The notes under the pieces were generated by a model. It was not told the DNA's origin, searched no databases, and saw only the letters and a list, made by a program, of their open reading frames with translations. Of a stretch of DNA of 14,363 bases, positions 1 through 14,363 are shown piece by piece. The position numbers and the translations under genes were made by a program. Source of the DNA: a virus (lineage: Duplodnaviria; Heunggongvirae; Uroviricota; Caudoviricetes); the IMG/VR virus record IMGVR_UViG_2681813233_000009. One strand, given 5' to 3'. Positions within the stretch are counted from its first letter, which is position 1, and the number at the start of each line of letters is the position of its first letter.

Positions 1-20
1 TCTGGATAATGCCAGCGTAG
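1..20. repeat. attL-side copy of att core (direct repeat; may extend left of the window)
   Basis: Identical to 14033-14052; sequences diverge immediately 3' of ...gcgtag (tcgtggcg here versus ggaagtca at the right copy). Confidence 0.7.
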
Positions 21-107
21 TCGTGGCGATTATCCTCATATAAATCAAAAGATTATTGCTCCTTTTCGTCCCGTATTGTTCAGCCGTAACACATTGAGGC
101 TCTCCAA

Positions 108-1463
108 ATGGGACACAAAACCATACGCCACACCATTAAACGTAACGGAATCTATTACGTTCGCTTCCGTCTGCCTGATAACAAGTTTTTCCGTAAGTCT
201 TTAGAGACTGACAGCCACACCCAGGCGCAGTTGCTCATGTCTTTTGCTTCTCCTGTAATCCCTCTGGTTCAACGTGGAACCATTCACCCGGATCAGTTTT
301 GTCAACGTCTTTCTGATTTCAGCAACCGCTTAAAGCAACAGAATGAACACTGGCTGGTTCAACAATTTCTCAGTGATGAACGGCGCAATCTTCAGCCGAT
401 AGTTGTTCAGGAATACCGCGAGGTTGTTGCGCCTTCAGAAGATGAGGAAGAACAAACAGAAGCACAGTCAAAGGATGTGTTAACACTGGCTGGCGCTTGG
501 AATATGTACAAAAAGGAAAAAGCCCAAAACTGGACGAAGGCAATTTCACAGGCCAATGAGCGCTTTATGGAAGTCATGTTCATTGTCGTGGGTGCATCTA
601 AAGATGTAACCACGATTACCAAGCAAGACATTAAACAGGTAATGGAGGTTGTTGAAAACTTGCCTAAGCGTGTTGTACAGCCTTACCGTTCGATGACGGT
701 TCAGCAACTGATCGAGTGTGATGATGTTCCGCCTGAAGATTTGGTTGGCGCTGAGTCTATCCACAAGCATTTGAAGATTTACAAATCGTTGTTTAAAACC
801 TTCCTGACAGACAATAAAGATATTCTGGAGAAGTCTCCGACTGATGGAGTGGTCGCCTCACCATCTAAAGCAAGGTTTGGTGCATATAGCGCAGCAGAAA
901 TGAGAAAGTTTGTGGGGTGGGCGCTCAAGCAGCCTGACGGGTGGCAGAAGTGGATCACTTTGCTGTTGGCGTACACGGGAGCCAGAAGAGGGGAGATCGC
1001 CAAGCTGGAGAAATCACAGATCAAATTTGATGAAGATAGCCAGCGGCACTATCTCCTGATCGCGGAAGGAGGGCAGGGTAAAACCGAGAACGCTACAAGG
1101 CAGGTGGCGATCCATCCCAAACTCATCGAGTGGGGGTTCCTCGAATTTGTAAATCGCCAATGGAAAGAGAAAATCTTCTCGCCTGTGTCGGGTAAGAACA
1201 TGCCGAAGATCGGCAAAGTTTTAGCCGATGTCCGCGATCAGCTTGGTATTCCGTACCTTGATGATTATGGGCAGCGGCGGCTAGTTCACAGTTTCCGGCA
1301 TACCATGATTTCAACCTGTTTAGCAGGCTGGGTTGGTAATCTGGCACACCTGCAACAGGTGGTAGGCCATGAGAAAAGCGGTTCAGGGATCACTAGACGC
1401 TACCTACACACGTTCCCTTTATCAACGATCTGTTATGTGATTGATGGGTTGGGTTGGGAATAG
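108..1463 (+). CDS. int: Tyrosine site-specific integrase (phage integrase family), 451 aa
   Basis: ATG at 108 with GAGG 8 nt upstream; C-terminal catalytic motifs readable in the translation: ...TGARRGEIAKL... (Arg), HSFRHT (His-x-x-Arg), VGHEKSG (His), TRRYLH (Tyr nucleophile); sits next to the att repeat. Confidence 0.9.
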   Translation: MGHKTIRHTIKRNGIYYVRFRLPDNKFFRKSLETDSHTQAQLLMSFASPVIPLVQRGTIHPDQFCQRLSDFSNRLKQQNEHWLVQQFLSDERRNLQPIVVQEYREVVAPSEDEEEQTEAQSKDVLTLAGAWNMYKKEKAQNWTKAISQANERFMEVMFIVVGASKDVTTITKQDIKQVMEVVENLPKRVVQPYRSMTVQQLIECDDVPPEDLVGAESIHKHLKIYKSLFKTFLTDNKDILEKSPTDGVVASPSKARFGAYSAAEMRKFVGWALKQPDGWQKWITLLLAYTGARRGEIAKLEKSQIKFDEDSQRHYLLIAEGGQGKTENATRQVAIHPKLIEWGFLEFVNRQWKEKIFSPVSGKNMPKIGKVLADVRDQLGIPYLDDYGQRRLVHSFRHTMISTCLAGWVGNLAHLQQVVGHEKSGSGITRRYLHTFPLSTICYVIDGLGWE

Positions 1464-1523
1464 CTGTTTATTAATAAAAGAAAAGCATTAGAAATATTTC
1501 CTTTAGTAAGTTTTTGGGTATCA

Positions 1524-1544
1524 TTCGCCCCGTAATGGGGCGAA
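1524..1544. terminator. Hairpin between the convergent int and cargo genes (possible weak bidirectional terminator)
   Basis: 8-bp stem ttcgcccc/ggggcgaa (1524-1531 with 1537-1544), loop gtaat; no clear U-tract on either strand, so function is uncertain. Confidence 0.3.
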
Positions 1545-1555
1545 ATCAAAACTAG

Positions 1556-2578
1556 CTATTCGGAAGTGACTTGGCTTTGCTTTTTTATCGTTCTGGTTTT
1601 CAACATTTCAATCTGGCCAGCTTCGGTTAATGACCAGAAAGTATTCATGCTGCCATTGGTGGTTTTTAAATATTCAATTTTTATCAAACCATATGCCCTA
1701 AATTGCACTCCTATCGTTTTAAGGTCTTGAGAAGATACTTTTGCTGATGTGCCTCCCTTGCCTGCGACCTTTTGAGCGCTTTTGGCAATTGTGTATGATA
1801 CGCTTGATTCAGTATAATATTGAGTGAGATAGGGGGAGATTGAGTGAAAAATATCCTTCCATTTCATTTTCACGGACCAGTGTTTTGTTCCACCGGGATC
1901 ATACCCGATTCGAGGAAAGGTGGACTCACATCTAAATTCAAAATCATCATCAAAGTCAGCCAGATCCAGATCAAGTGTTTGACTAAGATTACTTGTGGCC
2001 TTGGCTAGTTCACTTTTTAACCATTCATTCTCTTTTTGTAAATCAACCATAGCCCGTAAATCAGTTTCAGAAGACGTTAGGTTGGCTCTTACCCATCCGA
2101 TTGCTGGATAAGTTTTCATCGTTTTACTCATACTTAAAGCAACCAACCCGGGTAAATCTTTGGCTGTTGCCCATGTTTTCCTGAGACGATTGGTTGAGGC
2201 CTTCTCTATAAATGCAGCTAGCTTCTCTCTGAGTTCAGAATCTTTTTCAGATTTGGCTAAAGGTAGATTTTCCGGATTCTCATGTACCAAAACAACGACG
2301 CGTAAACCTTTTGAAACTGCGTAATCGAATTCCTTTTCCGTGTAACTTAAACCATCTTCCGCGACAGAGCCATAACGACCACCAATGATCAGCAGATAAT
2401 AATCACAGTCATCAATTACTTTTTTTATGAACTCCCATTGGCCTTCATCGATTGCTGGGAACAACTCCATGCCTGCTGGAATGCAATCCATTTCCATCAG
2501 AGTTTGTATGACGTGTTTTCGTTCTTCTTCTAAATCCGTAAAAGTTGAACTTACGAAAACCTGGTAACGTTTATCCAT
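1556..2578 (-). CDS. Cargo protein, 340 aa, with N-terminal DUF4062-like motif ([16 protein letters not shown]); candidate defense or abortive-infection protein
   Basis: ATG at 2576-2578 (minus) with AAGGGA RBS; uninterrupted 340-codon ORF; visibly more AT-rich than neighbouring genes; N-terminal FVSSTF-DL-EER motif matches my recollection of the DUF4062 family; central coiled-coil-like segment ([28 protein letters not shown]). Domain assignment not verified by HMM. Confidence 0.8.
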
Positions 2579-2584
2579 TTTTAT

Positions 2585-2616
2585 CCCTTAAAAGAGGAAG
2601 GGGCATTAGCCCCTTC
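2585..2616 (-). terminator. Putative intrinsic terminator or attenuator between the small Cys-rich ORF and the cargo gene
   Basis: 8-bp GC-rich stem gaaggggc/gccccttc (2597-2604 with 2609-2616), loop atta; on the minus-strand RNA it is followed by CCUCUUUU, which overlaps the RBS of the downstream cargo gene. Confidence 0.4.
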
Positions 2617-2624
2617 ATTCAACA

Positions 2625-2891
2625 TTAACCAGCGTGACGGTAGGATTCACGCACACCATCACGATAACCATCAGCGAACGCTGCTTGAGGACTTTTGTGG
2701 CGAACGGTTCCCGCCTGGCTATCAGGTAAGGCGGCTAAGTCTACCCAAACCTGACCCGTGCGAGCCAAGCCAGCGCGGTAACCCTGATCGTAAGCGCAGC
2801 CGCAACATTTATGGCGACCTTCACCACCTTGATCGTGAGGTAAGCTGATGAAAAGAGTATTGTAACGGTGTGACTGTTTACAAATGGTCAT
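2625..2891 (-). CDS. Small Cys-rich hypothetical protein, 88 aa (MTICKQSHRYNTLFISLPHDQGGEGRHKCCGCAYDQGY...)
   Basis: Internal ATG at 2889-2891 (minus) preceded by a strong AAGGAG RBS at 6-nt spacing; the longer track ORF (to 3014) has no RBS. GC-richer than the adjacent cargo gene. No family recognised. Confidence 0.5.
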   Translation of the reverse strand: MTICKQSHRYNTLFISLPHDQGGEGRHKCCGCAYDQGYRAGLARTGQVWVDLAALPDSQAGTVRHKSPQAAFADGYRDGVRESYRHAG

Positions 2892-3571
2892 GCAATGCTC
2901 CTTATGAGCGTTCATTTTAAGGTTTACATGATCCTCTTTGCCTGGCACAATCAAGCCGTCAGAAATGAAGGCAAGGCTAAGATTCATACGAGTTTGGCGA
3001 CTCCTATTGGTCATGCTTTGTAAGCCGGGTTCGTGAAAATGAATCCGGTTTTTTTATGCCTAAAAATCAGGCATGGCACTACATGTGGGGGTGGTCAATC
3101 AATGGTGGCCCCACATAGACGATATTCTAGTGATGATTCTTTTCTGCACAAGGGTTGATTTTGACGTTAAATTGAGGTTGTGAAAGGGTAAAAATGCAAA
3201 ACCCTGCACAGCATAAGGCTTGGAAGACATGTCAATGATTAAGAAAAAAAAATCAAAATTTGATCGAGTGCTGATTTCTTCAACGGGAGGTCAGAATTGC
3301 GCGACATGATGTCGCGTAATCTTTATAAGAATAATGAATGGCATTAGTCGTTTTTGATGGTCTCTTGTAACATATAGTTAACATATAGATGTTCGTGAAG
3401 GGAGAAAGGCGCGAAAGGTAAATGTTATCTGGATAGTCTACCAATGCCTGTACCAGTACGAAAAGAGCGCTAATCATACCGAACTTAATCTCATAAAGGT
3501 TTTCACGAGAGCGAAGGACGTTAACGCTAGATTGCGAAACGAAACATTTCATTCTCTTCAATCTTTGGGTA

Positions 3572-3610
3572 ATAAAAAAGGCTGACCCGTTAAGGTCAGC
3601 CTTCTTAAAA
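3572..3610 (-). terminator. Rho-independent terminator ending the minus-strand capsid operon (bidirectional-looking)
   Basis: 8-bp stem ggctgacc/ggtcagcc (3580-3587 with 3594-3601), loop cgttaa; A-run 3572-3579 on plus (U-run after the stem on the minus RNA); ttctt follows on the plus strand. Confidence 0.6.
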
Positions 3611-3622
3611 TCAATGTGTTAC

Positions 3623-3811
3623 TTACTTCTTTTGACGCTGTTTAGCGATCATAACGTTAAGCGCGTATTCAAAACCGTGTTGCGATTCCAAACGGCTAAA
3701 CGTCACGTTACACAGGCCCAACTCTCTACACAGTGCTTTACGGTTTACGACCTCCGCCGCGCCAGATACATAGACTTGACCAGCGCCGGGGATATTGATT
3801 GAAACTTTCAT
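3623..3811 (-). CDS. Hypothetical small protein, 62 aa, last gene of the capsid operon
   Basis: ATG at 3809-3811 (minus) with GAGGTG upstream; co-directional with the capsid gene and followed by the terminator at 3572-3610. The overlapping plus-strand ORF 3614-3802 lacks this context. Confidence 0.45.
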   Translation of the reverse strand: MKVSINIPGAGQVYVSGAAEVVNRKALCRELGLCNVTFSRLESQHGFEYALNVMIAKQRQKK

Positions 3812-3903
3812 GTGTCACCTCAAAAATAAAAGTAAAAATGAATATAACCGGAAGAGATAACCCCCAGCCGATACCCAAAGGGCGCGACCGGGGGCATTCT
3901 CTA

Positions 3904-4923
3904 TTACTTCAGCTTGACGTTCAGCATGTAGTTCGGGCGCAGGTTCAGAGGAATGAAGCTCGCCTCTTGGTGAACGGTCACCATGCCGTAACGGTCAGTC
4001 ATTACTTTTTGGTAGTAAGGGCTGATCACACCTTTAGCGGAGATATCCTGATTACGTGAAGCCGGGCCGCGTACCAGTTTGAACGGGTTACGATCCGCTG
4101 CACTGAACTTTGGAACGAACAGGCCGGAACCTGCCGCGATTTCGTAGCGGTCATCGTCCGCCAGAATGAAAGTAATGTTGCCAATGCTGAAGGAGTCATA
4201 ACCCGCAGTGTTAACCGGGATCAGAGCGCCTTTTGCAGCCTCCGCCACTTTGTTGGTGATCAGGCTGGTTACTTCTGGGTGGCTCGCCAGAACGTCATAC
4301 AGATCCGGGGAGCAGAAGCAATAGAAGCGGTCCAGATAGGAGCGGCTCGCGCCGTACTCTTTAACCAACATGCGGCGAATCTTCGCAAGCTGTGCATAGA
4401 CGTTAGCGCCTGCTGAACCGTCGAGGTCGAAACTCAGCGGAGCAGTACCAAACACAGCGTTAAAATCTACGTCGCCGTCATCCGTTTTAGCCGCTTTCGC
4501 TTCCTGCTTGAACAGGGCGCGGGCCAGTGTGCTTTCAACTGTTTCCAGATGATAGTTACGCATACGGATAGCTTTATCAGCAATAACAGATGTGATCGCC
4601 TGAGCCTGATCCGGGTTAGCCGGGCTTACCAGGCCTTGCCAGTCAGCGGTTTTTACATCCGCCTCAGTGGCATAGTGTGGGATCTCCTGGTTACGCAGGA
4701 TGGTTTTATCCATCATGATCGCGTTAACTTCGGTGCCATAGCGGGCAACCTGCTCCAGTTCACTAACCTGAGTTTCCACAATATCCACAATCTGGGCGTT
4801 TGGAGTGGTTGAGTTAACATCGGAGAAGATACCCAGATCAGAGATCAGGTAATTACCTGCTGGTTGATCTTTGATCGCCGCTACAGTGTCCAGCTTTTCA
4901 AACTGTTTAAAATCAATAGCCAT
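3904..4923 (-). CDS. Putative phage major capsid protein, 339 aa (family not verified)
   Basis: ATG at 4921-4923 (minus), AGGAA RBS; starts 12 bp after the stop of the upstream small gene (small-gene/capsid-gene arrangement as in lambda D-E); A/D/S/T-rich composition typical of virion proteins. Capsid assignment is by context and gestalt, not by alignment. Confidence 0.6.
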   Translation of the reverse strand: MAIDFKQFEKLDTVAAIKDQPAGNYLISDLGIFSDVNSTTPNAQIVDIVETQVSELEQVARYGTEVNAIMMDKTILRNQEIPHYATEADVKTADWQGLVSPANPDQAQAITSVIADKAIRMRNYHLETVESTLARALFKQEAKAAKTDDGDVDFNAVFGTAPLSFDLDGSAGANVYAQLAKIRRMLVKEYGASRSYLDRFYCFCSPDLYDVLASHPEVTSLITNKVAEAAKGALIPVNTAGYDSFSIGNITFILADDDRYEIAAGSGLFVPKFSAADRNPFKLVRGPASRNQDISAKGVISPYYQKVMTDRYGMVTVHQEASFIPLNLRPNYMLNVKLK

Positions 4924-4935
4924 TGTGTGATTTCC

Positions 4936-5307
4936 TTATGCTTTGAAGTAATCGGCGTTGATAGCCAGGCGAATATCACCGGAGGCTGTCAGCGCTTCCA
5001 GTGCGGCTTTTTTGCTCGCGGCGTCTTTAGCACGTAGGGCAAAATCGGTAATCACAACATGGCGATCCACGATAACCAGCGTTTTAGTCTTGCCATCGGC
5101 GGACATATTGGAAAGGTTAATGATCGGCTTGCCAGCTTCAGCGGCGGCGGAGTCGAACAGGGCAAAAGTTTTGCTGTCCAGAATATCGCCACAGTAGACG
5201 TCAGCCGGGAGGCTTGGGGCGGTTACTTCGGTGCGGTCAAACAGGCTGGAGGCGTAGTTGACGATTACGTCACCTTGCGTTACCGGGTAGCGCTCGGAAG
5301 TTTTCAT
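4936..5307 (-). CDS. Putative head decoration or capsid-associated protein, 123 aa
   Basis: ATG at 5305-5307 (minus) with AAGGAAAA RBS; the track ORF extends to 5451 but lacks an RBS there; tightly coupled (12 bp) to the downstream capsid gene. Confidence 0.5.
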   Translation of the reverse strand: MKTSERYPVTQGDVIVNYASSLFDRTEVTAPSLPADVYCGDILDSKTFALFDSAAAEAGKPIINLSNMSADGKTKTLVIVDRHVVITDFALRAKDAASKKAALEALTASGDIRLAINADYFKA

Positions 5308-5437
5308 AAAGGTTTTCCTTATGGAGGGTTTTAGACGTGGAGAGAGTCCACAGGATGATCCGGCGTTGCACCGAATATAAGGACCGCCACAGAGGACAAT
5401 CCGAATTGTTGGAAGATGGGAGGCCGTGGATTGAATA

Positions 5438-5467
5438 GAAGAGGGCGGCATCCGCGCCGCCCTTTCT
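5438..5467 (-). terminator. GC hairpin with flanking U-rich tracts upstream of the capsid operon (possible leader terminator)
   Basis: 7-bp stem gggcggc/gccgccc (5443-5449 with 5456-5462), loop atccgc; tttct follows on plus, and tcttctatt follows on the minus RNA; lies about 135 bp upstream of the decoration-gene start. Confidence 0.4.
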
Positions 5468-6551
5468 AATCTGGCTCTCTCTCACCCTCGCGGGTGGGGA
5501 AGGATATTTATCCTTTTGTGTGGATACTTGCCGCCCCTGGTGGCGTCACGTCGAATAGCACCAACCTTTTGGCAAATACCCACAAAAAAGAACCCGGCTG
5601 GAGGAACCGGGGTGGACAATGTAACTTACTGTATGATCACTTGTTTTCCTGTGTAGCCTCAGAGCCTTACATGATTTGCTTTCATGGTTCAGCAAAGAAG
5701 CCACAGAGGAAAACGGGCACCCTGAACGCGCCCGGAAACCATCGACGCAAATCAATAGTTTATCGTTGAGACCAGGTAACCAGCCCGGCCCAACTGTGAC
5801 CCCGTGGAGGGTCGATACAATTGAAGGAGATTCGCTTGTATTCTGAAGAGCCGCAGTTAGCGACGCTTTAGAATAGGGCCTGTGGCGCAAGCACTATGAT
5901 TAGAGGCGTTTTGAATCGTAGGAGTGAAACAATCGGCGGAACTTGAGGAGAGGACCGCACACAAAGCATTCTGGCAAGTGGAGTTGAAAGAACACTTTGG
6001 GTGAGGGCCGGGGCGGGGGAGAAGCCGCCCGGCTCACTCAGTACAGATCCTAATTGCACACGTTGCGACTCTGTACAGGTGGGGGGCGTGACAAGCTGCA
6101 AAACGGTAATTTCGATATCCTCGCCACACCCCACACCATGTATATTAGTTTAACACGAATGATTATCATTTGCAATAAAAATTAATTGCATTGTGTTGAG
6201 TCTTATGATATTGGCGGCCACACACGTGACGGATCAGATCTGCATTAATTTTTATTAGTGAGTGGTCTGACTCAGGGAGGGCTATGTGTCCCAAAAGACA
6301 CACGAAGTAATAATAGATATATAAGACCTCGCTACGCTCGCCCTCCGGGTCCGTCTTATTGATCTTATATAATAACTTCATTCAATAACTAATTGTTTTC
6401 ACAATTAATCATTTCATTCGTTATTATATGATCTTAAAACCTTCTCGCCCTTTGGGCTTACCAGGTTTTAGGCCGGGGCCTATTTCCCCACAATGTAGAG
6501 TCTCGCCTGTGTGGCTCATCTCCCGGGGGGCATTTTGAAACAAGGGTGTAC

Positions 6552-6612
6552 TGACAAAATGTCACAACGTGTTATGACAGATTGGCACAACGTGTTATGA
6601 CAAAATGTCACA
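6552..6612. promoter_or_regulatory. Cluster of dyad-symmetric repeats (operator- or iteron-like)
   Basis: 17-mer cacaacgtgttatgaca occurs twice (6563-6579 and 6586-6602), 6 bp apart; 15-mer tgacaaaatgtcaca occurs twice (6552-6566 and 6598-6612); each unit is itself a near-palindrome (TGACA-aaa-TGTCA; TGTCAcAACG/tGTTaTGACA). Confidence 0.5.
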
Positions 6613-7052
6613 TAATAAGATAAGTATATAAAACACCCTTAAAAGACAAACACCTAGGGCCAGGTCAAGATCTTAAAGAGATTGAGGGTGAATTATTGAT
6701 TGAACAATCAAGAGATCAGACTCTTTAGGAAAGAGCCTTACAGGCTCGCCTCCCTTTTGGGGCAATCGCAGAAACAGAAACCGCAACGCGGTTTTCTTTT
6801 CTGCTCTTTGGGAACACCGGAACGATGTGAAGGTGACATCTGGGCGGCGGGGTGGGGTGCCCGGCGCGGAGTGATACACAGTACAGAACCACAACCCACA
6901 GGAACCAACCTAAACGCGCCTCTGTGGCGCTCTCTCATATGCAGACACGGAAACACCTTATAAACACCCTGCGCCTCACTGAGAGCGTTACAGCGGCTTT
7001 CTATGCCTCTAGCACAATAAACAACTGAGCGCAAGATAAATCAAGAAAGTTG

Positions 7053-7081
7053 TTGCGAATCATTGTCAAATAGTGTAAAAT
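7053..7081 (+). promoter_or_regulatory. Candidate sigma70 promoter for the plus-strand operon
   Basis: TTGCGA (7053-7058), 17-bp spacer, TAAAAT (7076-7081), about 75 bp upstream of the ATG at 7156. Read by eye only. Confidence 0.3.
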
Positions 7082-7155
7082 AGATACTGTGATGAGGTAT
7101 TTATTCGAATATATAGATCCCCATCATACTATAACAAACATGAAAGGAGATTGCA

Positions 7156-7581
7156 ATGAGTATTTACCTCGATGTTGAAAAAATGGTTGAACGTGTCGAT
7201 CAGCGTGACCTGACCCGTAAGACCCTGACAGAAACCCGTAGCCGAATGAAAGCCGCCGGACGTATGGGAGAAGTTGAAGCGATTACGCAGGCCCTTGAAA
7301 TGACCAAATCAAAAGCATCCGGCGTCATGCGACAGTCTCAACGTATCGCTGCAAAGATCACCGAGATGGACGCAGAGAAAGCACTTGAAGTTAAAGCAGC
7401 CGTTTCGCTGTTCGCTTCCAAGTCTACAGACATGCAAGCCTCCATTGTGCTGGCGTTCCAATCCCTCTTTGAGGCTAAAGGCGTCCCGATGGAATACGAC
7501 GAAGTGATGGCTTTTATCATGCTGCAAGCGGCGGATCAGTTTGAGCGTATCACCGGAGAGTTGCCCGTTATCGTTCACTAA
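7156..7581 (+). CDS. Hypothetical protein, 141 aa
   Basis: ATG with AAAGGAGA RBS; first gene of a co-directional, tightly packed gene string; no family recognised. Confidence 0.7.
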   Translation: MSIYLDVEKMVERVDQRDLTRKTLTETRSRMKAAGRMGEVEAITQALEMTKSKASGVMRQSQRIAAKITEMDAEKALEVKAAVSLFASKSTDMQASIVLAFQSLFEAKGVPMEYDEVMAFIMLQAADQFERITGELPVIVH

Positions 7582-7610
7582 TTATTCATTTACTTTTTGG
7601 AGAGGAAACA

Positions 7611-7862
7611 ATGAGCAAATATCAGCCGTATGTTGATTTGAGTGATTCCCCTGTGTTGTCGGCGTATGCACAGCAGACGATCAACCAGTTGGACCCAACC
7701 CTGTACGATGACATTTACGAAATGTTGAAGCAGGTTAGTCCCTCCAAGTTGGTGACGATTGGCAACCCGGCGATCACCGCCCCGGCGTCATGGTGGGGTG
7801 ATTGGTTCGGCCTCAACCTCACCGCTGAAGACATCGCAGAATTACAGGAGATTGATCTCTAA
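7611..7862 (+). CDS. Hypothetical protein, 83 aa
   Basis: ATG at 7611 with GGAGAGGA RBS; its stop overlaps the next start (TAATG). Confidence 0.65.
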   Translation: MSKYQPYVDLSDSPVLSAYAQQTINQLDPTLYDDIYEMLKQVSPSKLVTIGNPAITAPASWWGDWFGLNLTAEDIAELQEIDL

Positions 7863-8041
7863 TGCAGATTGAATTTTCCCCCGAAGTGGCGGATCAGCTT
7901 TTTGAGTTGGCCCGCACAAGGAAGCACGGCTCCGCCTACGCAATCGTAAGAAAAGCAGTTAAGCAGTATTTGGATTCAGTTGAAGCTATTAACCCTGTTG
8001 AAGAGGATTTAACCCATGACCGCAGCACCCGCAGCAAGTAA
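7862..8041 (+). CDS. Small ribbon-helix-helix-like DNA-binding protein, 59 aa (absent from the ORF track)
   Basis: ATG at 7862-7864 overlapping the upstream stop (TAATG); translation MQIEFSPEVADQLFELARTRKHGSAYAIVRKAVKQYLDSVEAINPVEEDLTHDRSTRSK has an RHH-like strand-helix-Gly-helix pattern; overlaps the next gene by 26 nt in another frame. Confidence 0.5.
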   Translation: MQIEFSPEVADQLFELARTRKHGSAYAIVRKAVKQYLDSVEAINPVEEDLTHDRSTRSK

Positions 8042-8681
8042 GCCGTTTACCGCAATCCCGCATGACCTTGCGGACATTGAACAGATCAGCGGTAAGGCGT
8101 TTACCATGAACATGGTTTACACCTACAGCCTGATCAAATCCTTCCAGGACAATGGGCAAACGGCTTATTTCTCACAGGAGCTTTTGGCCCGTCGCCTGGG
8201 GGCATCCATCCGCAGCGTGATCCGCCTCCTGGCGGAGATGGTGGAAATGGGATTGATCAATAGTACCGGGCGCGTGGGTGGCAAGACCTGCCATTACACA
8301 GTTAACCCGATCACCCCGGAAATGGTGGGAACCCCTGAAGCCGCCAAACCTGAAGTAACCAAACCAACCGCAGCACCCCAACCCGTGGAGACCGTAGAGA
8401 ATGCAGGAAGTAACCAGCCTGGAATTGTTAAGTGTGGATCTGAAAGCGTACATAGAAGCCGCCCGGCGTCGTCTGGAGTTGCTCCTGTGGACCACAGCGG
8501 GGGCGCTGTTCGTCCCGCTCCTGTCCCTGTGCCAGTAGAGCAGGGGGCCGCAAACGATGATTTACGTAACCCTGTTATTAATTATGTGGCTGGCTCTAAT
8601 GTGATGATGGTCAACGGTTTGCCTGTTGAATATCTGGAGCCAGAAGAAAGCGGCATTGATCAGTTTGGTGATGCCTTCTAA
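8016..8681 (+). CDS. Putative winged-helix DNA-binding protein, 221 aa (replication initiator or regulator candidate)
   Basis: ATG with GAGGA upstream; HTH/winged-helix-like segment FSQELLARRLGASIRSVIRLLAEMVEMGLINSTGRVGG; Pro/Ala-rich linker and acidic C-terminal tail (EPEESGIDQFGDAF). Confidence 0.7.
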   Translation: MTAAPAASKPFTAIPHDLADIEQISGKAFTMNMVYTYSLIKSFQDNGQTAYFSQELLARRLGASIRSVIRLLAEMVEMGLINSTGRVGGKTCHYTVNPITPEMVGTPEAAKPEVTKPTAAPQPVETVENAGSNQPGIVKCGSESVHRSRPASSGVAPVDHSGGAVRPAPVPVPVEQGAANDDLRNPVINYVAGSNVMMVNGLPVEYLEPEESGIDQFGDAF

Positions 8682-8757
8682 AAATCTGCGATTGATTTCC
8701 CACTAATAACACTCTACACAAAACCCCCGCCGTTTACAACCCTTTGGAGATTCTCGC

Positions 8758-9324
8758 ATGAATAACTTTATCACTACTAAATTCAACGCCTTAACCTCCG
8801 AAGAGGAAGCCGCAGTAAATGCACTGGCGGAGAAATTAGCAGCAAACAAGCCCCGTCGGATTATGGATGAGAGCCATTTGACCCCGGATCAAATCCTGAA
8901 GATCAAGCGGGCCTGTATTCAGGGCCACAGCGCTAAAGCCATCCAAGCGGCCTTTAACGTGTCGCTGGCTTACGTCCTGAGAGTAAAGCGCTCCCACAAC
9001 CCTAAGAAGTACCAGAAGACCCCGCTCACCTTGCCAGAAAAGGCAGTGTTGGCCCAGCAGATGGACGCCGATAATTTGAGCTTGGATAAAATGGCGGAAC
9101 TTCTGGGGATCAACAGTAAGATGGTTTCCCTACTTCTTACCCAACCTTCACCCCGTTACCTGGTGGAGCAAATGCTCCCGTATGACCAAGTTTTACAGAA
9201 CCTCCGCAGCGCCCGCTACGTGGAAAGCCCTGTATACAAAAAAGGGACGAGTATGCGCCGTGTGCGACTGATCGTTTCTGAAGCTCGTCAGCAGGCCCGC
9301 CAGGCAATCATTAAATCCCGGTAA
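8758..9324 (+). CDS. Putative HTH-containing protein, 188 aa
   Basis: ATG with GGAGA RBS 8 nt upstream; two HTH-like segments (LTPDQILKIKRACIQGHSAKAIQAAFNVSLAYVLRVK; LSLDKMAELLGINSKMVSLLL). Function unverified. Confidence 0.65.
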   Translation: MNNFITTKFNALTSEEEAAVNALAEKLAANKPRRIMDESHLTPDQILKIKRACIQGHSAKAIQAAFNVSLAYVLRVKRSHNPKKYQKTPLTLPEKAVLAQQMDADNLSLDKMAELLGINSKMVSLLLTQPSPRYLVEQMLPYDQVLQNLRSARYVESPVYKKGTSMRRVRLIVSEARQQARQAIIKSR

Positions 9325-9495
9325 TTATGTCCAACCCAACGGAATGGGACCTAAAGGATTACTTAGGTTCCAAACTGGTTAAGCGTCAGACAAGACTCTC
9401 TAACTTTCTCGCCCCCTTCCTCTATATCCCCTTTAAGCCCGCTTCCCTCCTCCTGTGGGTAGTGGTAATCACTTTCATTATAAGGACTCTCTCAA

Positions 9496-9870
9496 ATGCA
9501 CCCCTTTGAACTACTGAAACGCCAGCTTGACGAAATGGCGAAATCCCGCCAGGTAGAGCAGGCCCAAGAGGAAGCCGCCGCCCGTGAACTCCGCAAGGCA
9601 CAGGCCGATCTCTCCCTGGACGAGGCTATTGCTCTGTACGGTACACAGTTGGAAGCCTCCACCGATGCAGCAGACAGCGCCCAGAAGGGCCGCGCCATTA
9701 AGAGCCGGGGAATTGCTCTGTGTCACAAGGATCAGGGATTCAGCGCCAACGGTCGCCCTGTGTCTCTCCTGACCAAATCAGCAGATCTGCCAGCAGGTCA
9801 CCGCCGGGTAATCATCAACAAAGCAGCAGGGCGCACCCTGAAGGCTATCAATCTGGAAGGGGCTGAATAA
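9496..9870 (+). CDS. Hypothetical protein, 124 aa, translationally coupled to the tape-measure-like gene
   Basis: ATG at 9496 with AAGGA RBS; its stop overlaps the next ATG (TAATG at 9868-9872). Confidence 0.6.
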   Translation: MHPFELLKRQLDEMAKSRQVEQAQEEAAARELRKAQADLSLDEAIALYGTQLEASTDAADSAQKGRAIKSRGIALCHKDQGFSANGRPVSLLTKSADLPAGHRRVIINKAAGRTLKAINLEGAE

Positions 9871-11990
9871 TGAGCGGTAACGTCATCATCACGAAGACCG
9901 TAAACAGAACTACGTTCACCACGGACGGGGCCAGCTATAAGAAGACGGTTGACCGTATCAAACAGGTGGGGAAAGAGTGGGATAAAGTCTCCTCTAAAAT
10001 GAAGCCTCTACGGATGAAATTTGAGGAAAACGCCTACACCAAGATCCGCCGGAAACAGCAGGACGCCACCGCAAAAGCAGCACTGGCAGAAGCCAAAGCC
10101 AAAGCCGCAGCGGAAGCCAAAGCGGCAAAAGCCCAACTAGCAGCGGAGCGTAAACTCCAGACAATCCGCGCTAAAGCTATTCGCTTTAATACCGCAGCGG
10201 CTAACGCCAACGTTACCCCGGCCCAACGTGCTGGACACCTCCAGGAGTTTGGACAGCTTACGCGCCAGTATCACGCCGGGTCTATGGCATTACAGGAATA
10301 TAACGCCCGTGTGTCACGCCTTCAGCAAACCATGCGCCAACAAGGCCGGGTAGGCATGAGGGGAGCCACAATTCCCGTAACCGCCAAAGTAAACAAACTG
10401 GATACCTCCATGATCGAGGGTGCAGGCGGGGCGATCACAATTGCCGCCACTGTGGCACTCTCCGGCAAGATCATGACTACCGGACAGGATTTTGAATCCG
10501 CTATGTCTGGTCTTACAGCGATCACCGGTTCCACAGAAAAAGCCGGGAAAGAGTTTGATTATCTTCGTGAACAGTCCAACCGTCTGGGGCTGGACCTTCT
10601 GAAAACTTCAAAAGACTATACGCAGTTTGCCGCCGCTGTTGGGGACAAACTCCCTAAAGACCAGATGCGATCCATCTTTGAGGGTGCTTCAGAGTGGGGC
10701 CTTGTTACTGGTGCATCCGCAGATGAGCAATCACGTGCGTTAAAGGCCCTTAACCAGATGATGTCTAAGGGTACGGTCATGAGTGAAGAACTTAAAGGCC
10801 AGTTGTCCGAGGCTCTCCCCGGCTCTGTGGGTCTGTTCGTTAAAGCCCTTAACGACATGAAAGGCGTTACCAACCTGACCGAGCAAGATTTGTTTAAGCT
10901 GATGGAAGACGGGAAGCTGTTCTCTAAGGACATCCTCCCACATGTGGCTAAACAGATGAAGGAAGCGGCCCGGCAGGGTGGCGCACTTGATAAGGCGATG
11001 AAGTCCAACCGGGCATCATGGCAGCGCCTCAATACCAGTATGCAGAACGCTATGAATGTGTTTTTCACTTCTGGCTTCGGTAACTCCCTTACCAACGCTT
11101 TCGACTCAATCAGCGCCGCTATTGACGGATCTGGTGGAGCCTTTGAGATGTTCGGGCATATCGCCGGGAAAATCGTTGAAGGTGCCACAGATGCGTTTAC
11201 AGAGTTGCATGACACTGTGATCCTGACCTTCCGCATTATTGAGTATTACGCCGCCAAAATGGGGATCAGTGGGGAGCAGCTCAAAGCCTGGGGAGAAATG
11301 GCAGCATATGCCGCCGGGGTGGCTCTGTTCGCTGGCTCTGTTTACAAGTTGGGCGGGGCTTTCAAGTGGGTCCTCACCATGCTGAACCCTCTTACCAAGT
11401 TGTTGGGAGTCATGAAGGGGATCGCCGCTATTGGTGGCATTGAGGCCGCTTCTGAAGCTCTGAGCGACGGTAAGCCAGGTAAAGACGGCCAGCCGGGCAA
11501 ACCGGGAACCCCATCAAAGAACACCAAGCCGATCGGCGCGGGCCGTGGCGTTAACTTTGGCCTCCCGGCTATTATCGCCGCTGTATCTCTGAATGACCGC
11601 CTTGATCAGATTCAGGCAGACCCGGAAGCGTTTAAGCGAAAGGTACAGGAGAATAATGATCGGCCTACGCTGTGGACTGACATCATGGAAGCATTCTCCG
11701 GCAGTTGGTACGAAAAGCAGCAGAACGCAAACCAGCAGGCAGCACAGACCGCAGCACTCGATCAGACTGTTCGTGTTGCTGTTCCAACCTTCATCCCTCC
11801 AACCACAGCGACGGTTACAGGTGGCTACGGTAATCCACTGATGACGCCGCCAGCGTGGCTAAACCAGCCGCTAAACGTGAGCGTTAATGTGAAGGTGCAA
11901 GATGGACAGGTGAAAAACCTTGTGCAATCTGAGATTGAACGTAATGAACAGGCGGCATTTAACATGCTGATGCAGGGCGGGCCAAACTAA
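9870..11990 (+). CDS. Phage tail tape-measure-like protein, 706 aa
   Basis: N-terminal Ala/Lys-rich coiled-coil (AKAALAEAKAKAAAEAKAAKAQLAAERKL); central segment LKGQLSEALPGSVGLFVKALNDMKGVTNLTEQDLFKLMEDGKLFSKDILPHVAKQMKEAAR resembles the conserved tape-measure motif as I recall it; hydrophobic Gly/Ala-rich segments; collagen-like GKPGKDGQPGKPGTP; followed by a terminator. Confidence 0.8.
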   Translation: MSGNVIITKTVNRTTFTTDGASYKKTVDRIKQVGKEWDKVSSKMKPLRMKFEENAYTKIRRKQQDATAKAALAEAKAKAAAEAKAAKAQLAAERKLQTIRAKAIRFNTAAANANVTPAQRAGHLQEFGQLTRQYHAGSMALQEYNARVSRLQQTMRQQGRVGMRGATIPVTAKVNKLDTSMIEGAGGAITIAATVALSGKIMTTGQDFESAMSGLTAITGSTEKAGKEFDYLREQSNRLGLDLLKTSKDYTQFAAAVGDKLPKDQMRSIFEGASEWGLVTGASADEQSRALKALNQMMSKGTVMSEELKGQLSEALPGSVGLFVKALNDMKGVTNLTEQDLFKLMEDGKLFSKDILPHVAKQMKEAARQGGALDKAMKSNRASWQRLNTSMQNAMNVFFTSGFGNSLTNAFDSISAAIDGSGGAFEMFGHIAGKIVEGATDAFTELHDTVILTFRIIEYYAAKMGISGEQLKAWGEMAAYAAGVALFAGSVYKLGGAFKWVLTMLNPLTKLLGVMKGIAAIGGIEAASEALSDGKPGKDGQPGKPGTPSKNTKPIGAGRGVNFGLPAIIAAVSLNDRLDQIQADPEAFKRKVQENNDRPTLWTDIMEAFSGSWYEKQQNANQQAAQTAALDQTVRVAVPTFIPPTTATVTGGYGNPLMTPPAWLNQPLNVSVNVKVQDGQVKNLVQSEIERNEQAAFNMLMQGGPN

Positions 11991-12004
11991 CCGCCAATAT
12001 AATA

Positions 12005-12031
12005 AAGGCTCCCCTAGTGGGAGCCTTTTCT
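12005..12031 (+). terminator. Rho-independent terminator after the tape-measure-like gene
   Basis: 7-bp stem ggctccc/gggagcc (12006-12012 with 12018-12024), loop ctagt, followed by ttttctctttt. Confidence 0.6.
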
Positions 12032-12060
12032 CTTTTATACATTTCTAATGTCCTGGCTTT

Positions 12061-12627
12061 TCATAACAGATCCGCTATTGAATATTTATCACTAAAATCA
12101 TCTACTTTGCGTTGTGTGGCCCCAATGTAATGAAGCGTACTGGATAACGATTTGTGCCCTAATGCTTTACTAATTACAGCTATATCCTCCCCATTGTCAT
12201 AACCAATCGTTGGTTTACTCTTCCTCATGCTGTGGGTCGAAAGATTCAGCCCCAGCTTTTCCCCGGCGTAGCTAATTTCCTCATGCAATTTGGAGCGGCT
12301 CACAGGTTTTCCCTTGCTCCTGTGGCTGTCCAACTGTAAGAGGTACACATTATCAGGGTTAGCCTCTCTCCGGGCCGCTATGATGCGTTTAGCGGTATCG
12401 GTAAGCCTCACCCGGACAGATTCACCCGTTTTCTGTTGGGACAGGACAAGGTGATCGCCTTTGATGTCGGCATAACGGATAGAGCGCAGATCCGACACCC
12501 TCAGCATTAATTCATAACCCAATAACCAGGCGTCACGGTACAGCGTCAGCCCCTTGCCCTGTTTGAGTAGCTCAACTGCTACCGCTTTCACTTCCTGAAC
12601 TGATTTACAGCCCTCTACGAAATTCAT
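12061..12627 (-). CDS. Small tyrosine recombinase, catalytic domain only (FimB/FimE-sized), 188 aa
   Basis: ATG at 12625-12627 (minus) with GGAGAG RBS; the track ORF begins at an upstream TTG without an RBS; motifs LRVSDLRSIRYADI (Arg), HSMRKS (His-x-x-Arg), LGHKSLSSTLHY (His and Tyr). Confidence 0.8.
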   Translation of the reverse strand: MNFVEGCKSVQEVKAVAVELLKQGKGLTLYRDAWLLGYELMLRVSDLRSIRYADIKGDHLVLSQQKTGESVRVRLTDTAKRIIAARREANPDNVYLLQLDSHRSKGKPVSRSKLHEEISYAGEKLGLNLSTHSMRKSKPTIGYDNGEDIAVISKALGHKSLSSTLHYIGATQRKVDDFSDKYSIADLL

Positions 12628-13020
12628 TCTGTACTCTCCAGAACCTAACTGTGATAAATTTTTGATCAAAAACAAGCACTTGTAAACGACAAAAATTATT
12701 AATTTTAAGTTGTGTCTTTTTAGTGAATTAAATCGGGTTTAATCGCGTTTAATGGCAGAGTAATGACCCGGCAGGGGAGGTAATGGGCTGTTTATGTGGG
12801 TAAAAGATGGTTGCTTAATGTACTATTACCACAAGACGGGTAAGGTGATTTGACTCCCTCAGTTCCTTTAAGCTACTGTATTTATGGGAAATTAATTATT
12901 GTTTCTTTATGGTGTTGCCTGGCAAATTTTCAGTTTACCCTCAAGAAAAATCCCCATCTTTTTTATTCTCCACATGAGAATAAATTTTGTTTGCAAATAT
13001 CACTCATTCTCAACTCCAGT

Positions 13021-13199
13021 CGGGGCGAAAGCCTTCGCCCCTTAAAGGGCCTTTGTAGGCTCGCTCTCTGTATGCGCCTGTGGCGCTACCACTCTCAACC
13101 CTGTGGGTTTGTATGGCTTGCCACAAGATAACGCGCCACAGGCGCACAGGGGAGGCGGACGCCTCCTGGGTGGCCCGGCTGGGCCACTGGTCCACAGGG
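13021..13199. other. GC-rich structured non-coding segment (multiple hairpins and a paired palindrome)
   Basis: Hairpin ggggcgaa/ttcgcccc (13022-13041); palindromes gcgcctgtggcgc (13074-13086) and its exact reverse complement gcgccacaggcgc (13133-13145); hairpins ggaggcg..cgcctcc and ggccc..gggcc (13150-13185); the only ORFs here lack RBS and context. Confidence 0.35.
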
Positions 13200-13588
13200 T
13201 AAAAGGACAGAATGGTATTGTGTTGTTATTAAGTTGTTGAGATTAAAGGGATGTCTTAGGGGGGACTGTAGTGGAGGAAGGTTGGGCAGGGTTTAATCAG
13301 AATGCAGGTCACTCGGCAGGGAGTGCCCTTAGATATTTGGCGAAAATACACGTGACCCCCCAGGGCCTCAGGTTGAAGGGCCTAGCAACAATATCCAAAC
13401 TCCCGGATATTTTCCCACCCAACTGGAAGGAATCCGCCCCTATTTTCTGTTCGTGTATAAGTTAGGCTGAGGGAGGCTTGCCAATGTACACCCCCTGGAT
13501 TTGGTGATCTGTTAAGTTATTGATTTTGATCGATTTTAGATCAATCATCCGTTGCCGGGATTACCCCCACCCAGACGGATGGCACACA

Positions 13589-13771
13589 ATGAATAACGAT
13601 AAAGCAAACCACCCTAAACACTTCCAATACTTGGGCCGCATGGTCACTGTTTACCCTACATACATCATTATTGACGGTATCAAGATTAGCCGTTCCCGTC
13701 TTTCCTTTGCATTCCAATTGGAATTGGCAAAAGCACTTCGACTGCATGAAGAAAGCGTATGCAGAAAATAG
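13589..13771 (+). CDS. Hypothetical small protein, 60 aa (alternative TTG start at 13520 gives 83 aa)
   Basis: ATG at 13589 with a weak GGA-containing RBS; followed by a strong terminator; no family recognised. Confidence 0.35.
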   Translation: MNNDKANHPKHFQYLGRMVTVYPTYIIIDGIKISRSRLSFAFQLELAKALRLHEESVCRK

Positions 13772-13807
13772 ATTTCATTTAAATCTTCACGACTGAATAA
13801 TTTACTT

Positions 13808-13832
13808 AAGCCGCCTTATGGGCGGTTTTTTT
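13808..13832 (+). terminator. Rho-independent terminator
   Basis: Stem ccgcc/ggcgg (13811-13815 with 13821-13825), loop ttatg, followed by a 7-T run (13826-13832). Confidence 0.6.
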
Positions 13833-13981
13833 GTGCCTGCCATTTATCTGTGGGTCACAACGTGAGACACAAACTGGGACACAGAGGATTTTTTAGGGTT
13901 GAGTCTTTGGCTTCCCGCTGGCATGATCCAGAACAGGGATTAACGGGACGTTAATCGCAAGCTTTTGATTTTGTTTTATTT

Positions 13982-14106
13982 GACTCGGGGTGCCCTTCTG
14001 CGTGAAGGCTGAGAAATACCCGTATCACCTGATCTGGATAATGCCAGCGTAGGGAAGTCACGGACCACCAGGTCATTGCTTCTTCACGTTATGGCAGGAG
14101 CAAACT
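13982..14106 (+). promoter_or_regulatory. TPP (THI-box) riboswitch of thiM: aptamer plus expression platform
   Basis: Sequence gactcggggtgcccttctgcgtgaaggctgagaaatacccgtatcacctgatctggataatgccagcgtagggaag matches the E. coli thiM TPP aptamer as I recall it (including the conserved CUGAGA element); it runs into the thiM RBS (aggag at 14096-14100). Confidence 0.9.
14033..14052. repeat. attR-side copy of att core, lying inside the TPP aptamer
   Basis: Identical to positions 1-20. Confidence 0.7.
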
Positions 14107-14363
14107 ATGCAAGTCGACCTGCTGAGTTCAGCGCAATCTGCGCACGCGTTACACCTTTTTCACCAACATTCCCCTCTTGTGCACTGCATGACCAATGATG
14201 TGGTGCAAACCTTTACCGCCAATACCTTGCTGGCGCTCGGTGCATCGCCAGCGATGGTTATCGAAACCGAAGAGGCCAGTCAGTTTGCGGCTATCGCCAG
14301 TGCCTTGTTGATTAACGTTGGCACACTGACGCAGCCACGCGCTCAGGCGATGCGTGCTGCCGT
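14107..14363 (+). CDS. thiM: Hydroxyethylthiazole kinase ThiM, N-terminal part (runs off the window)
   Basis: ATG at 14107 after aggag RBS; translation [85 protein letters not shown] matches E. coli ThiM as I recall it. Confidence 0.9.

Follow-up and report, generated by a model that had tools for sequence, protein, structure and literature searches.

What allows an integrative element to settle inside a riboswitch, and which partner then supplies the sensor standing before the regulated gene, are the questions raised by the locus described here, a stretch of 14,363 nt (the window) that ends within thiM. We give a probability of about 85% to the reading that a tyrosine-integrase element occupies the thiM TPP riboswitch aptamer of an E. 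coli-like chromosome, with the strand exchange and the leader arrangement proposed below.

The sequence TCTGGATAATGCCAGCGTAG is present in exactly two copies in the window, at 1-20 and 14033-14052, both on the plus strand, with 14,032 bp between their starts, and the repeat was matched in 0 of 200 shuffled sequences. The 20-bp direct repeat that an earlier note had seen bracketing the element is therefore genuine. The same note suspected that the identity is longer and that the window starts inside the left copy, and this is what relatives reveal: wherever the left flank is visible (loci L001, L058 and others) the identity block measures 71 bp, equivalent to 13982-14052, and in a second island type (type 2) it measures 82 bp. 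Of the 71 bp of the left (attL) copy, the window contains only the last 20, as positions 1-20 (plus strand), the first 51 bp being outside. The right (attR) copy occupies 13982-14052 (plus strand), as defined by the start of homology to empty sites at 13982 and by the allele and haplotype tests described below.

At the right end of the window there is a complete TPP aptamer (13976-14072, plus strand), which the Rfam covariance model RF00059 matches over its positions 1-105 with 74.8 bits, the gathering score being 54.3 bits. The attR block covers the 5' strand of P1, P2, P3 and P4/P5 up to GCGTAG. The DNA that follows (14053-14363, plus strand) is that of the host, 99.7% identical to E. coli K-12, and comprises the 3' strands of P4 and P1 that end the aptamer, the thiM expression platform and the 5' part of the thiM coding sequence (NF006830, TIGR00694); in relatives, thiM-thiD lies downstream of the riboswitch. 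The thiM ATG is at 14107, 54 nt downstream of the end of the right repeat copy, which places this copy within the aptamer and near the start codon, as had been claimed. ARAGORN found no tRNA or tmRNA gene in the window and the TPP riboswitch is the only Rfam match there; the insertion is thus at a riboswitch, and the contrast already drawn with tRNA and tmRNA targets, namely that the 5' end and not the 3' end is restored here, is apt. Since the window is the same as K-12 from GACTC onwards, the chimeric aptamer is expected to bind TPP and to regulate.

Comparison with island-free thiM loci supports this delimitation. Island-free E. coli genomes, K-12 DH1 (locus L002) included, align to the window only from 13982 rightwards. 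The region 13800-13981 is covered in only 36 of 5425 genomes, in matches that coincide with element genes or with a second place in the record, and no island-free genome was found that natively carries it without a second block. In complete E. coli genomes the block is found at 5665 places in 5423 genomes, which gives about 240 second copies, or a second copy in about 4% of the genomes; 5348 genomes have at least one near-full-length copy and 173 have a related integrase. On the other side, the native thiM leader precedes the left copy of the block in relatives, and the prediction that thiM-leader DNA flanks the left repeat holds in L001, L003, L004 and L058, where the rcnR-thiM host promoter region and the 5' part of the aptamer are found. 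The same integrase and att architecture accompanies other cargo at E. coli loci L001, L003, L004, L049 and L050. The survey of thiM leaders elsewhere, suggested in the earlier note, revealed the same insertion, and integrases closely related to this one, across Enterobacterales in more than 12 genera, including Enterobacter, Citrobacter, Klebsiella, Pantoea, Rahnella, Mangrovibacter and Kosakonia; in all of these genera the block ends with GCGTAG about 87 bp upstream of int. For the exact element, attP-specific patterns had no match in IMG/VR or JGI metagenomes, and neither an attP nor an isogenic empty-site pair was found. An attP-type junction from a relative is present in a metagenome (L063) and may represent either a circle or a tandem junction.

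The integrase gene begins 88 bp past the left repeat and is intact. Its product of 451 aa (108-1463, plus strand; PF00589, phrog_1) carries the catalytic motifs ARRGE (292), HSFRH (394), GHEK (420) and RRYLH (430). The left arm of the element (P' arm, 21-107, plus strand), as read from the sequence, contains GTGGCGATTATCC at 24-36, which is an inverted repeat of GGATAATGCCAG in the P5 hairpin and so creates a dyad around the junction; the motif CTGGCnnTTATYC is kept after the junction in at least 12 loci from different genera. The dyad GGATAATGCCAG / CTGGCGATTATCC around CGTAG(TC) is a candidate core integrase-binding site. The right (P) arm contains three direct arm-type repeats, GGGTCACA, GAGACACA and GGGACACA (13852-13883, plus strand), and a fourth copy, GGGACACA, overlaps the integrase start codon (110-117). 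The repeat has 7 matches in the window where 1.4 are expected, and these GRGWCACA sequences may be the arm-type sites. The right arm also repeats the attB core region, aptamer P4/P5 and GGGAAG, in inverted orientation (13903-13937, plus strand); in this copy, which is retained in diverged elements, 22 nt are 91% complementary to 14028-14049 and a further 14 nt are complementary to 14052-14065. It is followed by a small hairpin or palindrome, GATTAACG-GGA-CGTTAATC (13938-13956, plus strand), whose arms have undergone a symmetrical double change to GATTAATG/CATTAATC in L020, L053, L054 and L057.

As to the nature of the element, positions 1 to 14052 most likely represent a phage satellite of about 14.0 kb, an assignment made from gene content alone. 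Next to int there is a variable cargo slot (1556-3014, minus strand), in which profile matches place a DUF4062 protein (1556-2578) and one of phrog_3941 (2625-3014), and for which PADLOC gave no match; relatives have GmrSD, an HNH endonuclease or an ATP-dependent nuclease in this slot. Also on the minus strand are genes for a major capsid protein similar to lambda E (3904-4923; PF03864 at 1e-16, phrog_29) and a weakly gpD-like head decoration protein (4936-5307; PF02924 at 2e-4, below its cut-off). The plus strand encodes an HTH protein resembling replication initiators (8016-8681; PF13730, phrog_391, 270 and 428), a DNA-binding protein (8758-9324; phrog_664) and a tape measure protein of 706 aa (9870-11990; PF20155 at 2e-26, phrog_5255 at 3e-104, TIGR02675), and the minus strand a second, small tyrosine recombinase of 204 aa that consists of the catalytic domain only (12061-12675; PF00589 at 1.5e-16, phrog_216). 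The size, with the integrase at the left end, fits the range of about 10-15 kb of PICIs, capsid-forming PICIs (cfPICIs) and P4-like satellites, with which the element also shares the adjacent variable slot for defence-type cargo and a partial set of structural genes. Unlike these satellites, it lacks detectable AlpA, primase, TerS, portal and protease genes and has a tape measure protein which, to our knowledge, is not part of the described satellite families. In Pfam and PHROG scans against the satellite markers only the capsid protein, the weak gpD-like protein, the O-like HTH protein and the tape measure protein were found, and the markers of PICIs (AlpA, primase-replicase), cfPICIs (portal, protease, TerS, connectors) and P4 (Psu, Sid, Delta, alpha) were absent. 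The element had no match in the phage collection.

The two copies of the block can be told apart in four informative cases (L001, L049, L050 and L058), and in each the host allele is at attL and a foreign allele is at attR. In L001, L049 and L050 the host-linked P3-loop allele is at attL and another allele is at attR, as cross-checked with haplotypes H62, H75 and H114. In L058 the K-12 allele is at attL and attR has the foreign P3 loop CTTAAATG and a T at block position 45, followed by the E. coli leader; the L063 junction has the same foreign allele and the same left arm. To judge from these alleles, the attR block is of element origin at least to block position 45 and strand exchange is within the last 26 bp of the block (14027-14052), in the P4/P5 helix, which makes the thiM-proximal aptamer a chimera. 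In the window itself the attR block does not differ from the common E. coli allele, and its element origin is therefore deduced from relatives; with them, the proposal that the element supplies the 5' part of the aptamer at attR is well founded. In the scheme that we propose, attP would hold a 71-bp riboswitch copy that starts with the 5' strand of P1 and ends at GCGTAG in P4/P5. After integration, int at attL follows the host promoter and the 5' aptamer part of the host; at attR, thiMD is preceded by element DNA, the 5' aptamer part of the element and the 3' aptamer part of the host with the expression platform, in this order. The riboswitch before thiM is intact but chimeric and severed from its native promoter, and the invariant P4/P5 sequence may serve as a broad-host-range attB, as tRNA genes do.

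A different crossover would change this picture. If the exchange took place at the edge of the block farthest from int, its 5' edge, as is classical for tRNA-type sites, the aptamer at attR would be entirely that of the host, the 71-bp copy of the element would lie at attL, and only the promoter would be swapped. Integrase relatives with about 30% (28-35%) identity, which adjoin rnpB, the RNase P RNA gene, in marine Gammaproteobacteria (L021-L043), count for such an exchange. They share with the present element the integrase family, an RNA upstream of int and arm repeats over the int ATG, and likewise have a long identity block (141 bp in L031), situated between the presumed crossover and int; they differ in targeting the 3' end of the gene and in having its functional copy at attL, the classical arrangement, with the gene restored by the copy that the element brings. 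The allele tests contradict a 5'-edge exchange at thiM, with four independent cases of host allele at attL and foreign allele at attR and with the attR allele present in L063. It is also contradicted by the boundaries of the block, of which the left one differs between island types (71 vs 82 bp) and the right one does not (GTAG or GTAGGG), and by the position of the dyad, which, like the inverted core copy, is centred on the right boundary. We therefore consider it very improbable. That the repeat arose by chance or through misassembly in an ordinary variable part of the chromosome has practically no probability: that the window begins exactly at the repeat is all that speaks for it, and the shuffled sequences, together with identical junctions in dozens of independent complete genomes and metagenome contigs, refute it.

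An insertion at the riboswitch with exchange in P4/P5 could also be that of a prophage which has since decayed into an immobile remnant, its capsid and tape measure genes being leftovers and not a satellite toolkit. Terminase, portal, protease and tail genes were not detected in Pfam and PHROG scans of the element and no excisionase was recognised among its genes, 1.7 kb at 5452-7155 is poor in ORFs, the attP form of the exact element was not found in IMG/VR or the JGI metagenomes, and decayed and IS-truncated relatives exist (L040, L051), all of which would suit a remnant. Against this, several E. coli strains and metagenome contigs (L001, L048, L058) have the compact set of int, capsid protein, decoration-like protein, replication initiator, tape measure protein and small recombinase with identities of 85-97%, and diverged elements (L056, L062) retain it, their capsid and tape measure proteins being about 26% and 51% identical, respectively; random decay would not be expected to leave the set so conserved. 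The integrase is intact, the repeats are exact, and a close relative has an attP-type junction. A decayed prophage thus appears unlikely.

The insertion in the riboswitch displaces the native thiM promoter by 14 kb and puts element DNA in its place. The last element gene ends with a hairpin and T-run resembling an intrinsic terminator (13808-13835, plus strand; sequence scan), which would insulate thiM from read-through. The earlier note had proposed that the element possibly supplies a promoter: the native one is necessarily parted from thiM by the element, and the replacement promoter is one that we infer, because no consensus sigma-70 promoter is present between the terminator and the block. 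Transcription of thiMD would start from a conserved part of the right arm of about 85 bp. In int-less remnants, such as that of SCU-172, thiMD is preceded by element DNA only, and a type-2 right arm lies upstream of the riboswitch in 564 genomes; these indicate that element DNA is probably sufficient for thiMD expression. It is distinctly improbable that integration amounts to a reciprocal swap of promoters and leaders tying the element to thiamine physiology, in which the host thiM promoter would drive int through the orphaned 5' aptamer fragment and the element would drive thiMD. If transcribed, the inverted P4/P5-P1' copy in the right arm would, by prediction (-87 kcal/mol, z = -5.5), lock the aptamer by pairing with it. 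Were the swap true, the element would control the thiamine salvage genes of the host, or thiamine status would control excision.

Elements targeting tRNA and tmRNA genes, reportedly including P4-like satellites at leuX and CP4-57 at ssrA (Williams 2002), share with the thiM element a tyrosine integrase beside att, a structured-RNA target, arm-type repeats, a conserved target allowing broad host range and a carried partial copy that keeps the target functional. The thiM target is, unlike theirs, a cis-regulatory mRNA leader and not an RNA gene, and its 5' part is restored, with the functional copy at attR, distal to int, so that the host promoter is lost and a replacement is required. SXT/R391 at prfC and dusA-specific islands enter a gene at its 5' end and bring a substitute for that end as well as a promoter. 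The thiM element would resemble them in entering the 5' end of a transcription unit and giving it 5' sequence and, presumably, a promoter; they restore part of a protein-coding sequence, whereas here a ligand-binding RNA fold is restored, and hence the sensor itself is chimeric. RNA-encoding DNA other than tRNA genes is likewise the attB of prophage phiEf11, which integrates in ffs (PMC12540744), of pneumococcal prophages in csRNA (as cited in PMC12540744) and of Felsduovirus in rybB (PMC10121019). These three targets are genes of trans-acting RNAs and none is a riboswitch; the recent ffs report (PMC12540744) indicates that the class of non-tRNA RNA targets is still growing. The thiM site itself appears as the 'rcnR-thiM' defence island of E. 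coli 789 (Hochhauser et al. 2023, PMC10121019, supplement), a non-hotspot of MGE type 'None' with a type IV restriction system, at the same chromosomal site as the type-2 island L049; that entry says nothing of the repeat, of a riboswitch as target or of an integrase mechanism. Our literature search found no paper in which an attachment site is a riboswitch.

What holds for integration in tRNA genes would thus extend to a riboswitch, an invariant ligand-binding RNA fold providing a broad-host-range landing site at the price of a spare 5' aptamer copy carried by the element. A few percent of E. coli genomes, together with many other Enterobacterales, would have a thiM riboswitch that is a host-element chimera run from foreign upstream DNA, which matters for the use of the thiM leader as a model riboswitch and for inferring regulation from sequence. 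Genome annotation acquires spurious second "riboswitches" at attL, and pipelines for mapping islands that call such sites "intergenic" overlook the whole class. From the integrase family, which targets rnpB as well as the thiM riboswitch, genome engineering might obtain new attB sites that are conserved in nature. The thiM riboswitch is, in addition, a hotspot for two integrases, as a second satellite family also splits this aptamer and leaves it unrepaired.

The window contains exactly two copies of the 20-mer TCTGGATAATGCCAGCGTAG, both on the same strand (1-20 and 14033-14052), and 200 dinucleotide-preserving shuffles gave none (0/200), which bears out the exact 20-bp direct repeat that the earlier note had placed around the element. 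The only family that Rfam finds in the window is the TPP riboswitch, whose complete aptamer occupies 13976-14072 (74.8 bits, model positions 1-105; the gathering score is 54.3 bits). The end of the right repeat falls within the P4/P5 arm, 54 nt short of the thiM ATG (14107), and the earlier claim that this copy lies inside the TPP aptamer about 55 nt before the start codon holds. No tRNA or tmRNA gene was found in the window by ARAGORN. A tyrosine recombinase gene, int (108-1463, + strand; 451 aa), with intact catalytic motifs begins 88 bp past the left repeat.

When the right end of the window was checked against island-free loci, including K-12, homology was found to begin only at 13982. Among 5,426 complete E. 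coli genomes, those without the island match the window from this position onwards only, at up to 99.7% identity, and 13800-13981 is additionally covered in only 36 genomes. The order at the empty site of K-12 DH1 is rcnR, ~90 bp, the aptamer and thiM. The closest relative of the element in a complete genome is that of E. coli SCU-316 (L001; 77% coverage, 91.7% identity), where attL consists of the native leader followed by GACTCGGGG...GCCAGCGTAG (71 bp) and then int, and attR of element DNA followed by the identical 71 bp and then by GGAAGTCACGG...thiM. The 71-bp block corresponds to window 13982-14052, and the window therefore begins 51 bp inside the left copy; the suspicion that the identity extends beyond 20 bp was correct. 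A second type of island (type 2), 3-9 kb in size with GmrSD or HNH cargo, occupies the same site. Its integrase is ~80% identical to that of the window at the DNA level over the C-terminal two thirds, and its repeat is 82 bp long, consisting of CAACCAAAC, the 71 bp and then GG (L003 and L004).

The block itself makes it possible to ask which of its copies is derived from the element. Two natural E. coli alleles of the P3 loop exist within it, CTGCG, present in K-12, and CTTTG, present, for example, in the island-free genome 88-3493 (L045), and three islands (L001, L049 and L050) have unequal alleles at their two ends. In SCU-316, attL carries CTGCG and attR carries CTTTG; the 529 bp of thiM DNA behind attR match island-free genomes without a difference, the attR stretch as a whole departs from these genomes at the two loop bases only, and STLEFF_47, one island-free genome matching this thiM DNA, has the CTGCG allele (H75). 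The type-2 island of strain 789 (L049) also has CTGCG at attL and CTTTG at attR, and its thiM haplotype is of the K-12 type, natively associated with CTGCG (AR436, H62). The order is reversed in the type-2 island of TUM14697 (L050), with CTTTG at attL, CTGCG at attR and a thiM haplotype natively associated with the two-mismatch allele (strain 1002W03, H114). The host allele is thus at attL and the foreign allele at attR in all three. A metagenome contig, L058, contains an entire related element in an E. coli context: at its attL the native leader is joined to a block that is 100% identical to K-12, and at its attR the P3 loop of the block is a different one (CTTAAATG) and position 45 of the block has T in place of C, the E. 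coli leader coming next. A second contig, L063, contains an attP-type junction made up of the right arm, a block with the foreign allele of L058, the left arm and int, the left arm and the int N-terminus being the same as in L058.

The alleles of these four islands and the L063 junction agree with the earlier proposal that the element supplies the 5' part of the aptamer at attR. They argue that the element carries the block, that at least block positions 1-45 of the aptamer before thiM come from the element, and that strand exchange takes place within the last 26 bp of the block, ACCTGATCTGGATAATGCCAGCGTAG (window 14027-14052), the exact position of the overlap region being presumptive. Since the attR block of the window equals the common E. 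coli allele, its likely element origin rests on the relatives.

In the 5423 E. coli genomes with the block it occupies 5665 places, so that ~240 are second copies, or roughly 4%, and a related integrase is present in 173 of the complete E. coli genomes. Separately, ~75 E. coli genomes lack an intact 71-mer. The earlier note had suggested a survey of thiM leaders in other genomes, and the same insertion, recognized by int together with the block, was indeed found in further genera of Enterobacterales. A wider scan limited to one genome per species recovered integrases that are 58-96% identical from Enterobacter, Citrobacter, Klebsiella, Pantoea, Rahnella, Winslowiella, Franconibacter, Mangrovibacter, Lelliottia, Buttiauxella, Kosakonia and Pseudenterobacter; Raoultella, Phytobacter, Cronobacter and Dryocola were added by protein searches. 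In nearly all scanned loci int is preceded, at a distance of ~87 bp, by the 3' part of the block with its GCGTAG end; two exceptions are L009, which gave no copy of the block, and L041, with the attR copy only; both att sites are visible in the small islands L006, L020 and L040. A third type of integrase, 53% identical, adjoins the block in L053 (4239-5699; JGI Ga0207713_1000695), where a type-1-like right arm (type 1 being elements like that of the window) is followed by a block ending in GTAGGG and then by this integrase, an arrangement that may represent either another tandem or a further attP variant.

The only more distant integrase relatives recovered are 28-35% identical and come from marine Gammaproteobacteria (L021-L043). 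In 17 of 20 marine gammaproteobacterial loci a full-length RNase P RNA gene lies 50-100 bp upstream of the integrase gene, and in one of these loci (L031, 2559-2899 and 6185-6325) a 3.4-kb island lies between exact 141-bp repeats of the rnpB 3' end. Judging from the riboswitch block and the rnpB neighbours, this integrase family appears to specialize in structured-RNA targets other than tRNA.

Genes for tRNA and tmRNA are conserved RNA targets of integration that are restored by the incoming element, and at prfC and dusA integration occurs at the 5' end of a gene, which receives a replacement promoter. We found no report of a riboswitch serving as an attachment site (attB) in full-text literature searches and no description of rnpB as an integration target in the literature. 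Besides tRNA and tmRNA, the conserved RNA genes used for integration include sRNAs and csRNA, to which ffs was added in 2025 (PMC12540744). Riboswitches, thiM and rnpB go unmentioned in the TIGER/Islander papers, which class non-gene sites as intergenic, and in a catalogue of E. coli defence islands the 'rcnR-thiM' island of strain 789 is entered as a non-hotspot without an MGE type (PMC10121019 supplement). Islands between rcnR and thiM have thus been recorded before, but without a description of their target and mechanism.

The same riboswitch is also occupied in E. coli AF26 by a second, unrelated PICI-like element of ~11 kb (L046 2990-3020; L047 38920-38960 and 39146-49306). Genes for a 406-aa integrase, a primase, a HEPN protein and a fusion of ClpP protease and major capsid protein (MCP) are present in this element, and its core is only 14 bp (AGAAATACCCGTAT). 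Its insertion breaks the aptamer between P3 and P4 and does not repair it; the annotation shows no riboswitch ahead of thiM. A tandem arrangement is seen on the minus strand of L052 (IMG/VR UViG 2529293239_000005, ~6150-6320), where the type-1 right arm and the 5' aptamer part are directly followed by the PICI-like left end; the rebuilt riboswitch was therefore itself reused as a target by a second integrase.

The slot directly after int is variable and contains defence-type genes. In the window it is occupied by genes for a DUF4062 protein and a phrog_3941 protein (1556-3014), neither of which was matched by PADLOC, and in relatives by an ATP-dependent nuclease (L001 4628-6076) or a GmrSD or HNH endonuclease (L003 9090-10661; L004 16119-16844). 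The element further encodes a lambda-E-like MCP and a weakly gpD-like protein (3904-5307), an O-like HTH protein, a DNA-binding protein, a 706-aa tape measure protein (TMP; 9870-11990) and a second tyrosine recombinase of 204 aa. The window gave no recognizable genes for terminase, portal, protease, tail or excisionase, and no record in the phage collection matched the element. The combination of MCP and TMP without terminase, portal, protease and tail genes is unlike the described satellite families. One could explain it by random decay of a prophage; a phage satellite with a hotspot for defence cargo fits better, and the same gene set is kept in L001, L048 and L058 and, at much lower protein identity, in L056 and L062. 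By its marker genes the element does not pass as a PICI, cfPICI or P4-like satellite, and we therefore regard it as a probable satellite of undefined type, the satellite lifestyle being presumed. The ~1.7 kb (5452-7155) that separate the decoration-like gene from the following gene on the + strand contain no convincing ORF and gave no Pfam, PHROG or Rfam signal (Rfam scan of 5300-7300); this region is conserved at ~89% in L001, where it is also unannotated.

Several readings bearing on mobility and regulation were set aside. RefSeq annotates a second 'TPP riboswitch' at attL of type-2 islands (L003 7521-7616, L004 14521-14616, L049 1358-1453), and this PGAP annotation would imply an integrase regulated by TPP; such regulation is unsupported, as the Rfam scores are at threshold (55.3 and 53.6 bits) and P1 is unpaired, and the annotated feature is an orphaned 5' fragment and an annotation artefact. 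Two assemblies of 'ATCC 8739', with and without a type-2 island, might be taken for evidence of excision, but their flanking proteins differ and they are not isogenic. A 14,063-bp JGI contig has the length of a circular form (14,032 + 31 bp) and turned out to be a related element, 97% identical, beginning inside int. Patterns specific for attP had no match in IMG/VR and JGI metagenomes, being too strict for the left-arm variant, which a looser right-arm pattern recovered. We infer that the window's own copy is mobile.

The insertion leaves the native promoter region at attL, 14 kb away from thiM, and a terminator-like hairpin at 13808-13835 ends the last element gene, so that thiMD transcription must either start within 13836-13981 or read through the terminator. 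A promoter scan found no sigma-70 consensus site in 13400-14363, and the candidates found by hand, TTGAGT-17-CATGAT, TGnCATGAT (in the inverted copy described below) and TTAATC-17-TTTTAT, were weak and inconsistently conserved; no promoter is claimed. In 564 complete E. coli genomes (~10%) the riboswitch is preceded by the type-2 right arm, whereas the matching attL junction is present in only 138, and in SCU-172 (L051) an IS1-associated deletion took everything upstream, leaving an int-less remnant with thiMD behind element DNA only. The difference between 564 and 138, together with SCU-172 as at least one such genome, provides indirect support for element-driven expression of thiMD.

Directly behind the junction GCGTAG, every type-1 element has some variant of CTGGCnnTTATYC (GTGGCGATTATCC at 24-36 in the window), an inverted repeat of GGATAATGCCAG in the P5 hairpin, which creates a dyad around CGTAG(TC) that may constitute a pair of core-type binding sites. 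Three GRGWCACA repeats are located at 13852-13883 and a fourth over the int ATG (7 matches in the window versus 1.4 expected); type-2 islands have GGGGTACA repeats at the equivalent places and an rnpB-type relative has TGGTACATAAACTGGTACA at both ends, all of which are putative arm-type sites, as would be expected. The last ~85 bp of the right arm are kept among elements that have otherwise diverged and contain an 8-bp hairpin or palindrome, GATTAACG/CGTTAATC (13938-13956), which shows a symmetric double change to GATTAATG/CATTAATC in other lineages and G-U-compatible changes in L040; it could be either a 5' stem-loop of the RNA or a protein-binding palindrome. Next to it, 13903-13937 is an inverted copy of the attB core region (14028-14065) that spans both sides of the junction (TGCCAGC..GGGAAG); diverged type-1 elements have kept it, and type-2 islands have a shorter version. 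The position of the thiMD start site matters because a start upstream of 13903 would place the inverted copy in the transcript, where pairing with the aptamer's 3' half is predicted (-87.3 kcal/mol, z = -5.5).
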